Source of the DNA: Gemmataceae bacterium
GTDB lineage: Bacteria > Planctomycetota > Planctomycetia > Gemmatales > Gemmataceae
DNA: 64,000 bases
Reading direction: 5' to 3'
NCBI GenBank assembly: GCA_045802605.1
Contig: JBJMQS010000037.1
Span: 59,420 to 123,419, forward strand
The translations under genes were made by a program, and so were the position numbers. The notes below the pieces were generated by a model. That model made no database searches. It was not told where the DNA came from and worked only from the letters and a program-made list of their open reading frames with translations. Shown piece by piece: positions 41,738 through 52,404 of this stretch (positions are counted from its first letter, which is position 1; each line of letters starts with the position of its first letter).

Positions 41738-43105
41738 TCAATACATGAACTGCATGCCGAACTCGACGCCGTGGGCGAAGAAGTCATCGCGGCTCGTTCG
41801 CAGCAGCGGTTCTTGCGGGCCTGACGTCGTGCCAAAGGCGGCACTCGTGGGCACAAATCGCTGATTGATCGTGGTGTTCACCAAATCGCCGGGCCGGACC
41901 ACGTTATTGATGTACAAGAAGTCGTAGCCGACAAAGACGCGCATGTACTGGCTCACCTGCATGCCGGCTTGCACGCCCACTTCCGGCGCGATGGTAAACC
42001 ACCGCGTGTTCGCCGAGGTAGCATTTGCCCCGGAGAGAGCCAGGATGCCGCTCGGCGCGGTGGCTGTGCCTCCGGTTGGGCCGGTAGCGACTGAGCTTCC
42101 TTGGACGATAAATGTTTGCATGTTCGGGCCCATCGCCACTTTGCTGGTGATTGAGCCGAACCAAATCCCTTTGCACGCTTCGTAATGAGCGCCGAGTTGA
42201 CCTGCCCACAGTTGATTGCGGGTATGGAACACATCGGTGATCGTGACGCGATTGAAGCCCGTGGCTCCGGTCGCGCCGTTGAAGGGCAGAGTGCCAGTGC
42301 CGGCCGTTTGCTGACTGACTTGCGTCATCGTCAGGTCTTCTTCCAGGCCGATGTAGCGGAAGCCCATTAACGCTTCGAACGAGCTGAACTCGTTGTACCA
42401 CAGGTTACGCGTGAAGTTGAATTCCGCGCTGCCAAGTTGAATCGAGGAGTCCACGGTGAAGCTGCCGGCCAATCCAGGCCCGCCAACCAGAATGATCACC
42501 GGTTGAGTGGTCAACGCATCGATGACTGGCCTCGTGATGACTGGCGCGCCGGGCGCACCCGACGATGTCACCGTCGTGGTCAGATGCTTTTGTTCGAGCA
42601 GAAAGCCGGCGTAGTTAACGCCGAAGACGTGCTGGCAATCGAGCCACACGCCGCCGTCGATGTGGATGCCACTGAAATTGCCGAAGTCAGTGCTGCCGGC
42701 AGGTCCGCCGACCACGGGTGCACCATTCACTGCGACGAGCGTAGATGGTAGCGGTCGATCAGCGAGCTTCCAAAGGAGGTAGCCCGCGCTAAACCACATC
42801 TGGTCCGGCGGGCCGGTGTGCGTGACTTCGAGCGATGGTTTCTCTTGTGCGCCATTGCACGGGCAACTGGCGGCCGGCTGTTTTGGTGCAGCGACGGGTT
42901 TCGGAGCGGGTTTCGCGGCGCGCAATTCTTCGGGCTTTTGACCTTCGGCCGGCTTTGGTTGCTCCGGAGCAGAGATGACGATTCTCGACGGCGCGGGCAT
43001 CGCGTCGCCGAGCGGTTCGGGCAGTTGTTCAGGAGTCTGCGGAAGACCACGTCCCGCCAACGCCAAAAGGACCGTTAACGTCGCAATTGCTCGGCGTTTG
43101 TGCAT
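41738..43105 (-). CDS. Outer-membrane beta-barrel protein (BBP7-like), signal peptide + Pro/Ala/Lys-rich linker + barrel ending in aromatic residue
   Basis: Signal peptide MHKRRAIATLTVLLALAG. Alternating amphipathic strands. C-terminal ...GVEFGMQFMY. Confidence 0.5.
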   Translation of the reverse strand: MHKRRAIATLTVLLALAGRGLPQTPEQLPEPLGDAMPAPSRIVISAPEQPKPAEGQKPEELRAAKPAPKPVAAPKQPAASCPCNGAQEKPSLEVTHTGPPDQMWFSAGYLLWKLADRPLPSTLVAVNGAPVVGGPAGSTDFGNFSGIHIDGGVWLDCQHVFGVNYAGFLLEQKHLTTTVTSSGAPGAPVITRPVIDALTTQPVIILVGGPGLAGSFTVDSSIQLGSAEFNFTRNLWYNEFSSFEALMGFRYIGLEEDLTMTQVSQQTAGTGTLPFNGATGATGFNRVTITDVFHTRNQLWAGQLGAHYEACKGIWFGSITSKVAMGPNMQTFIVQGSSVATGPTGGTATAPSGILALSGANATSANTRWFTIAPEVGVQAGMQVSQYMRVFVGYDFLYINNVVRPGDLVNTTINQRFVPTSAAFGTTSGPQEPLLRTSRDDFFAHGVEFGMQFMY

Positions 43106-43261
43106 CGCAGGACTCCGTTCCGAGCGCGGGCTGAATAGGCCAACGCCCGCCGATCAAAGCAGTTCCACCGTTTGTATCGGTTGTGCGGAACAGCGGGCTT
43201 GAAAGGGAAAGGCAGAGAATTCCGCCGCGGTGGCGGGCGTGCGAAGATGGGTAAAGTCGAA

Positions 43262-43353
43262 GAAGAGAAGAGTTAACCGCAGAGAACGCGGAGAGCGCTG
43301 AGCAAACCAAAACCTGATTTGGTTTTCCCAGCGCTCTCTGCGTTCTCTGCGGT
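43262..43353. repeat. Hairpin repeat family copy D, immediately downstream of the 2628-aa gene
   Basis: gagttaaccgcagagaacgcggagagcgctgagcaaaccaaa / tttggttttcccagcgctctctgcgttctctgcggttaatctc. Confidence 0.8.
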
Positions 43354-51262: not shown

Positions 51263-51546
51263 GGGGGAATTCCTTGGGTTGGTAAACCGGGCAAGCTGGC
51301 GAGTTCTCGGCGAGGTCTGGGCGCACGATCTAAGCGACGGTTACCCGTAGTCTAGATCGGCTCAGGTAGTTTGGGCAGGTATCGGGAACATTATTGGGCG
51401 TGAATGATTGTACCAAGTCAACCTGGCACAATGGGGAAAAGTCCTGTGGAAGGACCAAACCGAATAAAAGGCCTAGGCGTGTATCACACGTTTTCACTTG
51501 CCCCACTTGGCGAGCAATATCCCAGTAAATCTAGGCCGTCCGGGGT

Positions 51547-52404
51547 TCAGTAAGCCGCGGGCAACTTCGCACTCCGCAACCAAGCCGTGTACCAGATATC
51601 CATGGTGAACTGAGCCCCTGCCTTGCAGCGAGCCATCACGAACGCCCGGCTCTCGTCCGTTGGCTTGGCGATAGCGCCGGCCGCATCGAGGCGATACGAT
51701 TCCTCAATCTGGCGGTGCGATTCTCGCAAAAATGCCACGACATGCTCAAACACATCACCCTCGATCGCCTGGGCCTTTAAGCCTTGGCAAATCTCCTCGG
51801 GCGTAAACCCGTTTGTTTCCGGGTAGCCATCCAGCTTGGCGTGGATGCCCTTTTGCACCATCTTGCCATCCGCCCCCCGACGGCCATCGTAGTCGCGCGT
51901 GGTATGCAACGGCATCGACGCGTCGGTCGTGTAATGGGCAAGATTCCCCGCGTAAACCACGGCCTTCATCGCAATCGCGGGATTGCCCGGATCATGCCGA
52001 TAGTCGGCGAACGCACAGGTGAGCCGATCGAATCCCTCGCAAATCGACCACGGCAGCAACCCGGCCTTCTCCGGCGAGTGATTCAATTTTTGAAACAGTG
52101 AAATTGCGACGTAGCGCGAGTTGGGAGGCGTGTTGCCTTCCAGGTCCTCCATGTCCAGGAAGTGATGCGGCGCCTCCGCATCCTTCAAATAGGTCGCCCC
52201 GCGGTTCTTCCAGCGATCCGGATCGCCGGCACAATGGGCGAGCGACTTGCCCGCGGCCCGGAAAAACGCCGGCACATCTTCAGGCAAACCGACGGCGGCC
52301 GCCTCGGTAATCGTCTCGTGGCCCTTGATCCACCACGCCGGAGCGATGCCGGCAAATCCCAACACCGCGGCTATGAACAGCGCGAGCGTTAATCGTTTTC
52401 GCAT
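51547..52404 (-). CDS. S1/P1 nuclease / zinc-dependent phospholipase C superfamily protein, secreted
   Basis: Signal peptide then WWIKGHETITEAAAVGL (compare the WG..GH start of S1/P1 nucleases). The start is trimmed to ATG 52404. Confidence 0.4.
   Translation of the reverse strand: MRKRLTLALFIAAVLGFAGIAPAWWIKGHETITEAAAVGLPEDVPAFFRAAGKSLAHCAGDPDRWKNRGATYLKDAEAPHHFLDMEDLEGNTPPNSRYVAISLFQKLNHSPEKAGLLPWSICEGFDRLTCAFADYRHDPGNPAIAMKAVVYAGNLAHYTTDASMPLHTTRDYDGRRGADGKMVQKGIHAKLDGYPETNGFTPEEICQGLKAQAIEGDVFEHVVAFLRESHRQIEESYRLDAAGAIAKPTDESRAFVMARCKAGAQFTMDIWYTAWLRSAKLPAAY

Follow-up and report, generated by a model that had tools for sequence, protein, structure and literature searches.

A giant beta-helical protein with a planctomycete surface leader is paired with a BBP7-family outer-membrane barrel in Gemmataceae

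The locus

We analyzed a stretch of 64,000 nucleotides from a Gemmataceae bacterium (contig JBJMQS010000037.1; hereafter, the window), centering on a gene for a giant protein and the BBP7-family outer-membrane barrel gene that follows it. Three genes lie here on the minus strand, in the 5' to 3' order S1/P1-nuclease-like gene, a gap of 284 nt, the giant gene, a gap of 270 nt and the BBP7 gene. The G+C content of the window is about 60%, and the locus shows no compositional break. An earlier note on this DNA, made from the sequence alone, had read the three genes as a two-partner-like arrangement in which the barrel could translocate or anchor the giant. The features it described were all found on the minus strand where it had placed them, by open reading frame (ORF), Pfam and folding analyses. 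Its interpretation as a whole was partly supported: the conserved unit comprises only two of the three genes, the giant and BBP7. The genes, and the parts of the giant protein, are as follows.

51547..52404, minus strand: S1/P1-nuclease-like gene (zinc nuclease/phospholipase C superfamily), 285 amino acids, secreted; a neighbor outside the conserved module
43376..51262, minus strand: giant gene, 2628 amino acids; leader-bearing beta-helical fiber protein with a C-terminal FG-GAP module
51146..51262, minus strand: leader, residues 1-39; basic, Trp-containing start (MSRSWWQKLFRRK...), then LEERLTPAF
50663..51145, minus strand: conserved N-terminal domain, residues 40-200; start of the beta-helix
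44816..50662, minus strand: beta-helical shaft, residues 201-2149; duplicated modules, with residues 200-480 modeled as a regular beta-helix
43379..44815, minus strand: C-terminal module, residues 2150-2628; pre-propeller segment, FG-GAP repeats and conserved tail (...RRDGAHVAVGAAFLT)
41738..43105, minus strand: BBP7 outer-membrane beta-barrel gene, 455 amino acids; Sec signal peptide, linker, barrel and terminal aromatic residue

The giant ORF is identical to ACJ8C4_11135 at NCBI, a hypothetical protein from a Gemmataceae metagenome-assembled genome (MAG), and has 75 homologs. None of the S1/P1-like, giant and BBP7 products had a match in NCBIfam.

Conservation of the giant-BBP7 pair

In 10 of the 10 loci carrying this type of giant, the gene directly past the giant gene encodes a BBP7 protein in the same orientation, across a gap of about 130-320 nt. 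This constant order, kept in at least five unrelated flanking contexts, upholds the earlier suggestion that the giant has the barrel as its dedicated partner. The ten loci are the window and the nine listed here with the lengths of the two products, in amino acids.

L001: giant 2873, BBP7 458
P0003 locus: giant 2917, BBP7 462
L002: giant 3903, BBP7 474
L003: giant 2188, BBP7 460
L084: giant 2158, BBP7 481
L085: giant 1966, BBP7 456
L086: giant 2461, BBP7 528
L087: giant 2302, BBP7 485
L091: giant 2994, BBP7 494

The flanking contexts are of the cation ATPase/ABC-3 type, the window type, and types with a Ser/Thr kinase/transposase, SBP56 or a TonB receptor/COX. L086 is syntenic with the window, the cation-ATPase/ABC-3 context is common to L001, the P0003 locus, L084 and L085, and the pairs of L002, L003, L087 and L091 each sit in a context of their own. 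For P0007, the pairing was predicted from the C-terminal tail and then found. The proposed conservation of a gene trio failed, as the S1/P1-like gene lies beside none of the other giant-BBP7 pairs, the syntenic L086 included.

The pairing tracks the giant's C-terminal module, not the N-terminal end. The C-terminal 479 residues of the window giant align almost end to end with every paired giant, at 30-52% identity; for unpaired homologs, the alignment to this module is limited to the FG-GAP core. P0029 (which has no FG-GAP), the Tuwongella protein P0051 and P0025 have other C-termini and no adjoining BBP7 gene. The N-terminal domain of the window giant occurs in the unpaired P0029 and P0051 as well as in paired giants, and in the giants of L084, L086 and L087 it is replaced by other domains. 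A Mantel test across the ten pairs gave r = 0.72 (p = 0.001) for the co-variation of BBP7 with the C-terminal module; for BBP7 and the N-terminal 300 residues, which showed no correlation, the values were r = 0.15 and p = 0.23.

Two further observations concern single loci. In L084 (3391-9867), the barrel is 65-73% identical to the barrels of the syntenic L001 and L085, the N-terminal domain of its giant differs from theirs, and its C-terminal module is 46-48% identical to those of L001 and L085 and 55% identical to that of the window; this pattern suggests an exchange or recombination of the giant gene, with the barrel left in place. The gene past Tuwongella P0051 was considered as a divergent barrel and rejected, being a polytopic membrane protein of 634 amino acids with an hhalign probability of 0.1%.

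The giant protein

The giant is rich in Gly (13.8%), Thr (13.5%) and Ala (11.7%), and also in Ser and Asn. Its N-terminus had been described as basic and lacking a Sec signal, which the Kyte-Doolittle profile bears out: the leader has no hydrophobic core, the best 10-residue mean in the first 40 residues being -0.6 to 0.45, compared with 2.6-2.8 for the signal peptides of both neighboring genes. What the earlier note overlooked is that a known type of leader, the planctomycete cell-surface leader, stands in the place of the missing signal. The leader sequence in the window, KLDLNRARLEERLTPAF, fits the planctomycete cell-surface consensus. In the N-termini of homologs, a basic, Trp-containing start likewise leads into LE(D/E)R(I/V/L)(T/V)PAF; the motif LE[DEA]R..PA[FY][NDT] is present in 21 homologs of the giant, and residues L31, E32, R34, P37 and A38 are invariant (alignment A2, 15 sequences). 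Judged by its sequence, the giant's leader is the known planctomycete-specific cell-surface leader, which would replace a Sec signal. The PF07595 profile gave no match at E <= 10 to the leaders of the giant or of P0010, the profile being perhaps too short to score or not in the library used.

Planctomycete genomes contain genes for dozens of very large surface proteins whose N-termini carry a peculiar leader and no Sec signal. The motif of these cell-surface signal proteins was reportedly described by Studholme et al. in 2004. It is given as RRLxxExLExRxLLA or LxLExLExRxxP, the former corresponding to Pfam PF07595 (Planc_extracel) and first described in Rhodopirellula baltica (PMC8567305). In Tuwongella immobilis, LxLExLExRxxP is carried by 52 proteins. 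Eight of the ten longest proteins are among them, and several of the 52 were recovered solely in the fraction soluble in sodium dodecyl sulfate (SDS) (PMC8567305).

The beta-helix had been a guess, and it now has support for residues 40-480: an AlphaFold2 model covering residues 1-480 shows a regular beta-helix that starts at residue 40, with a predicted local distance difference test score (pLDDT) of 84 and a predicted template modeling score (pTM) of 0.81. The solved folds closest to this model are TpsA proteins and the domains that typify two-partner secretion (TPS). Similarity to the TPS domain (PF05860), which had been put forward for checking, did not appear at the level of sequence, with no Pfam match in the whole giant at E <= 0.01 or in residues 1-400 at E <= 5. 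An hhalign comparison of 21 giant-family N-termini with 11 TPS-type N-termini gave a probability of 4.7%.

The shaft is built of duplicated segments. Self-similarity relates residues 202-490 to 1095-1386 and residues 573-681 to 979-1083, and further repeats of about 95 amino acids (at 718-900 and 1700-2130) and about 150 amino acids (at 1300-1760) were seen. The shaft modules are 45-50% identical, over 211-243 amino acids, to the shaft of P0017, a protein whose N-terminus resembles a signal peptide plus a TPS-type secretion domain. No match to HemolysinCabind, the Pfam family examined as a test for an RTX adhesin, was found in the giant.

The integrin-type FG-GAP repeats reported at the C-terminus of the giant were confirmed, in what would be a propeller module. 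FG-GAP scores 54-70 bits at about residues 2290-2560 (Pfam cut-off 22.1) and FG-GAP_3 scores 33-50 bits (cut-off 26.9), with three to four repeats called; by eye, five repeats with an Asp/Gly-rich loop of the D-x-x-G-D-G type can be discerned.

The BBP7 barrel

The partner matches PF07585 (BBP7) at 185.1 bits, against a cut-off of 26, across profile positions 1-350 of 350. A signal peptide (hydrophobicity 2.6) is followed by a variable, disordered Pro/Ala/Lys-rich linker at about residues 20-100 and by the barrel at residues 103-455. The protein has a conserved segment, L-x-D-T-H-x-G-P-P-x-Q-x-W, and ends in ...GMQFMY, the homologs ending in F, Y or W. A Shine-Dalgarno sequence, GGAG, lies upstream of the gene at 43113-43116.

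The AlphaFold2 model is all-beta, with pLDDT above 90; its confident part spans residues 100-455, and what precedes them is disordered. By DSSP, the barrel has about 14 strands, four of which are 26-27 residues long. With strands of this length, the model most resembles the OmpT and OpcA folds, and its best structural match is a Legionella porin (MOMP). A topology count from the strand order would put the four very long strands on the extracellular side, and the disordered N-terminal extension is predicted to be periplasmic. The model contains no POTRA or other folded periplasmic domain. In the Pfam scan of the barrel, BBP7, a family labeled as putative porin, was the sole match, with neither Omp85 nor PorP_SprF found.

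The family has members elsewhere. In L083 (about 5953-9015 and 10001-11116), the ORF upstream of a distant BBP7 gene ends in a BBP7-like manner (...FWAQGINCGVEIRF), which suggests tandem BBP7 paralogs. BBP7-family genes at 28-32% identity occur in Bradyrhizobium (L056, L078) and in MAGs labeled Alpha- or Gammaproteobacteria (L026, L030, L037 and others); either the family extends beyond Planctomycetota or some of these bins are mislabeled.

The region between the two genes

Sequence elements like repetitive extragenic palindromes (REP) and a conserved motif mark the 3' ends and gaps of the locus.

43273..43356, no strand: REP-like palindrome, 20 nt past the giant stop codon; 39-nt arms with 92% complementarity
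43175..43203, minus strand: two-block motif with the core TCAAG-N18-CGATA, here TTCAAGC-N10-GCACAACCGATA; the BBP7 start codon lies 70 nt downstream
41644..41727, no strand: second REP-like copy, 10 nt past the BBP7 stop codon, between convergent genes
53878-53962: third REP-like copy, between two convergent genes

The palindrome past the giant gene has a folding energy of -86 kcal/mol (z = -12.6). The hairpin element described earlier is thus present, but it is not specific to the locus, since copies of about 86% identity recur elsewhere in the window. There are three copies in 64 kb, with none expected, all at gene 3' ends, and because of this recurrence the palindrome is a dispersed REP-like element not private to the locus. 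Each copy spans about 90 nt, with the core CCGCAGAG-ACGCAGAGAGCGC and its complement, and stands just past a stop codon, which suggests that genomes of this Gemmataceae lineage carry it throughout as a 3'-end element. Past the giant stop codon, it probably acts as a terminator or as a stabilizer of the mRNA 3' end. Strong hairpins unrelated in sequence occupy the same position in L002, L003, L085, L086 and L087, the one in L086 being GC-rich and carrying a T-run. The gap between giant and barrel in L002 (21712-22034) contains a tandem array of the heptamer CTGACTA, in about eight copies, which pairs with an inverted copy into a long hairpin just past the giant stop codon. Rfam matches to plant and animal microRNA precursors in 41500-43500 (29-46 bits, with cut-offs of 64-103) were rejected as generic hairpin matches.

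Between the palindrome and the barrel gene lies the two-block motif. Its exact 29-nt form, TTYAAGC-N10-GCNCAACCGATA, occurs once each in the window, L001 (17972-18000), L003 (12833-12861), L084 (9969-9997), L085 (9766-9794) and L086 (9920-9948), always between giant and BBP7, and was not found in the other loci examined by pattern search. Variants of equal spacing are present in L002, L091 and L087, and the GGAG ribosome-binding site lies downstream of the motif. As the flanking proteins are just 40-50% identical, the motif could be the promoter of the barrel gene or a site of its regulation. Scans for consensus sigma-70 promoters and simple terminators put neither intergenic region above shuffled expectation. 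The conserved motif lies past the hairpin and before the barrel gene, so the barrel gene is probably transcribed from a promoter of its own, which might be recognized by an alternative sigma factor, perhaps of the extracytoplasmic function (ECF) type. The regulatory anatomy of the two genes is separate, and the arrangement reads as giant, terminator or stabilizer, promoter and barrel, and not as a simple operon. Operon-like co-transcription is accordingly not supported, since in most loci a strong hairpin past the giant stop codon is followed by a promoter-like motif before the barrel.

Distant BBP7 genes and a Tuwongella pair

To look beyond this subfamily, we surveyed 80 genome loci with BBP7 genes of at most 35% identity. 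A leader-bearing ORF was the immediate downstream neighbor of a distant BBP7 gene in 8 of 67 cases, versus 10 of 757 other ORFs. Most of these neighbors converge on the BBP7 gene, ending 14-175 nt away, and their architectures are unrelated to one another: Ice_binding/SdrD_B/DUF4214, He_PIG/DUF11/Ig-like, and cadherin-like. A metagenome scan with a single BBP7 protein returned no matches, and a scan with the subfamily alignment returned nine short loci.

Published proteomics of Tuwongella contain a comparable pair with consecutive locus tags, both members of which were detected in the proteome (PMC8567305 Table S3). GMBLW1_22780 has PF07585 and a signal peptide and was detected solely in fraction S3, and GMBLW1_22770 is marked TRUE for the cell-surface motif, has PF13517 (FG-GAP_3), no signal by SignalP and strong enrichment in S3 (PMC8567305 Table S3). 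According to this table, both proteins are therefore in the SDS-soluble fraction. The enrichment of leader-bearing downstream neighbors, together with this co-fractionation, suggests a general association of BBP7 barrels with leader-bearing surface proteins.

Regulatory genes also occur nearby. A second BBP7 gene of Tuwongella (GMBLW1_21670-21690) adjoins genes for an ECF sigma factor and a PknB-type kinase (PMC8567305 Table S3), and the L002 pair lies downstream of a gene for a 2024-residue double kinase (683-6757). Such neighbors may hint at regulation of these barrels.

Comparison with known systems

The module combines a BBP7-family barrel with an FG-GAP protein that belongs to the planctomycete leader class. 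The closest documented parallel to this combination would be the type-B cargo of the type 9 secretion system (T9SS). There, SprB binds SprF in Flavobacterium johnsoniae and PG1035 binds PorP in Porphyromonas gingivalis, the barrel genes adjoin the cargo genes, and the barrels serve anchorage (PMC9143113). The likeness lies in a very large surface adhesin gene adjoining its own outer-membrane barrel gene, in a C-terminal cargo domain that goes with the barrel, and in a barrel proposed as the cell-surface anchor. Unlike that system, the barrel here belongs to BBP7 and not to PorP_SprF, and the giant has the planctomycete leader and no Sec signal. The surroundings of the giant-BBP7 pair showed no T9SS core genes; T9SS is not known outside the Bacteroidota/FCB group.

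Two-partner secretion (FHA/FhaC, HMW1/HMW1B, EtpA/EtpB) likewise places the gene of a giant beta-helical exoprotein beside that of a dedicated barrel, and the shaft modules homologous to those of P0017 add to the resemblance; so would a TPS-type fold of the N-terminal region, whose model is closest to TPS domains among solved structures. However, membership in this class is not supported: the giant lacks PF05860 and a Sec signal, and its partner lacks Omp85 membership and POTRA. TpsB proteins recognize an N-terminal TPS domain, whereas the BBP7 partner co-varies with the C-terminus of its giant. The pair also differs from a classical autotransporter (type 5a secretion, T5aSS), as passenger and barrel are not one polypeptide and the giant has no Sec signal, and from an RTX adhesin of the type 1 secretion system (T1SS), as HemolysinCabind is missing from the giant and the nearby ATP-binding cassette (ABC) system is of the FtsX/MacB type, on the other strand and missing from most related loci.

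Type 11 secretion is similar in having a single barrel gene beside surface-displayed cargo and many paralogous barrel-cargo pairs (Slam/DUF560; PMC12282271). The barrel family differs, in a comparison made by Pfam scan alone. Slam has periplasmic tetratricopeptide repeats, and its cargo is Sec-dependent and often a lipoprotein. By its parts, the giant-BBP7 module is not a TPS pair, an autotransporter, a T9SS type-B pair or a T1SS adhesin.

Finally, the giant resembles the planctomycete cell-surface-signal proteins (PF07595) in its motif of the LxLExLExRxxP form, which tends to mark the longest proteins of a genome; members of this class occur in the SDS-soluble fraction of cells (PMC8567305). 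Unlike earlier accounts of this class, as far as their excerpts go, the present data link a specific barrel family to leader proteins. The excerpted literature on the leader class mentions no export route or membrane partner, and full-text literature searches for BBP7, PF07585 and PF07595 returned no description of a role for the barrel or of BBP7-cargo pairing.

A proposed role for the pair

We propose, at a probability of roughly 0.55, that the pair is a cargo-plus-cognate-barrel surface-display module of this Gemmataceae planctomycete. The BBP7 barrel would be the cognate outer-membrane partner of the fiber's C-terminal module and would hold the cell-proximal C-terminus of the fiber at the outer membrane; it may also help that C-terminus across. 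The beta-helix would then project outward as an adhesin or capture fiber. We infer both the anchoring role of the barrel and the orientation of the fiber.

Several points weigh against this proposal. Physical contact between barrel and fiber is something that we infer, and the present barrel model would fit an anchor and a conduit alike. Several of the ten loci are syntenic orthologs, so the independent observations are nearer five or six than ten. Adjacent genes that are inherited together co-vary to some extent anyway, and the Mantel result is hence supportive and not decisive. The hairpin and the promoter-like motif speak against simple co-transcription of the two genes. Moreover, a giant lay directly upstream of 0 of the 64 distant BBP7 genes scored, so that direct linkage is limited to one BBP7 subfamily, at about 36% identity and above. 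At the edge of this range, two metagenomic loci of about 35% identity (L093, L095) have an extra gene between giant and barrel, and a short metagenome contig (L092) shows no giant within its 1.4 kb of upstream sequence.

One alternative keeps the partnership and changes the barrel's task: it would be primarily a dedicated translocation pore, as in a split autotransporter or TPS-like system, with anchoring secondary or absent. The unfolded giant would thread through the barrel or through a hybrid of barrel and beta-barrel assembly machinery (BAM), and folding of the beta-helix outside would drive export. With the passenger gene ahead of the barrel gene, the pair is arranged like the domains of type Va autotransporters, and the shaft is homologous to that of P0017, with its TPS-like N-terminus. 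Known single-chain protein-conducting barrels have 12 strands (autotransporters, FapF) or 14 (Slam), and the model with about 14 strands falls within that range. However, the barrel lacks POTRA and any other folded domain in the periplasm, the giant is without a Sec signal for periplasmic entry, and the pairing tracks the C-terminal module and not the TPS-like N-terminus. Because of this last point, and because the barrel resembles the MOMP porin, OmpT and OpcA folds and not known translocators, we favor a translocator less and consider it unlikely. Less likely still, the barrel would be an ordinary channel for diffusion or uptake, merely co-located or co-regulated with the fiber and not in direct contact with it; the fiber could, for example, capture polymers whose products the BBP7 channel imports. 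The family name (putative porin), the Legionella porin as best structural match, the location of most BBP7 genes away from giants, and the barrel's apparent promoter-like element, insulated from the giant by a hairpin, all fit such a channel. Yet the adjacency persists through at least five changes of flanking genes, among the parts of the giant the barrel tracks one C-terminal module alone, and other BBP7 subfamilies adjoin leader-bearing surface proteins of quite different domains; with neighbors so varied, a substrate-specific uptake link is hard to reconcile.

The reading of nuclease, giant and barrel as a three-gene operon forming a single two-partner secretion unit is very improbable. 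It draws on the position of the three genes on one strand of the window in this order and on the signal peptide of the nuclease-like protein, but the comparative data contradict it, down to the syntenic L086. The two gaps are each well over 200 nt, the second holding the -86 kcal/mol palindrome, and tests for a TPS signature and a Sec signal on the giant and for an Omp85 partner were all negative.

Beyond the surface-display module proposed here, a broader and rather doubtful extension would make BBP7 the missing outer-membrane component of a planctomycete-specific export and anchoring pathway for LExRxxP-leader proteins, in which each barrel subfamily serves its cognate cargo through a C-terminal module and which would be distinct from secretion types I-XI. 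If true, such a pathway would cover most of the giant proteins of the phylum. What is new here is the conserved pairing of one class of leader proteins with a BBP7 barrel, running through the C-terminal module of the cargo. A cargo with a dedicated adjacent barrel is a known kind of system, with some chance in this case of marking a phylum-specific display pathway; shaft modules of the filamentous-hemagglutinin type appear to have been re-used under a different export and anchoring logic. Were the link merely positional, the locus would be an ordinary adhesin gene beside a porin gene. The pairing, its link to the C-terminal module, the pairings of other subfamilies and the Tuwongella pair together provide a concrete candidate gene for deletion, testable in culturable relatives.

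Neighboring genes

The S1/P1-nuclease assignment of the gene upstream of the giant stands in part. The gene and its signal peptide are present, and the Pfam assignment is sub-threshold: S1-P1_nuclease (PF02265) scores 23.2 bits against a cut-off of 29.5 (E = 7e-5), over profile positions 1-138 of 258. The match begins at profile position 1 on W24, directly past the classical signal peptide, and the protein contains the pattern W..., H, HHF, H-x3-D-x5-H, H-x3-D, which we take to be that of the zinc ligands of P1 nuclease. No solved relative was found by sequence. In the syntenic L086, an unrelated product of 273 amino acids occupies the same position. The region past the S1/P1-like gene folds no better than shuffled sequences (z = -0.67).

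Convergent with the barrel gene is a MacB-type operon on the plus strand (37229-41634), encoding ABC, FtsX and membrane-fusion proteins, which is also found in the syntenic L086 (11628-16046) and in the separate L091 clade (13270-17042), there with genes for TetR and OEP (TolC-like). The remaining pair loci do not have it, so its presence near the pair may be a coincidence or an accessory link. As a candidate exporter of the giant, this MacAB-like ABC/FtsX/HlyD operon was set aside, being on the opposite strand, of the MacB type and missing from most related loci.

On the other side, an ORF of 485 codons without a Pfam match (52417-53874, plus strand) diverges from the S1/P1-like gene, its start lying within about 15 nt, and is followed by the third REP-like copy. 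Next comes a fatty-acid/phospholipid synthesis cluster (53966-57583, minus strand) with a beta-ketoacyl synthase, a FabD-like acyltransferase and PlsX, which are ordinary housekeeping genes.

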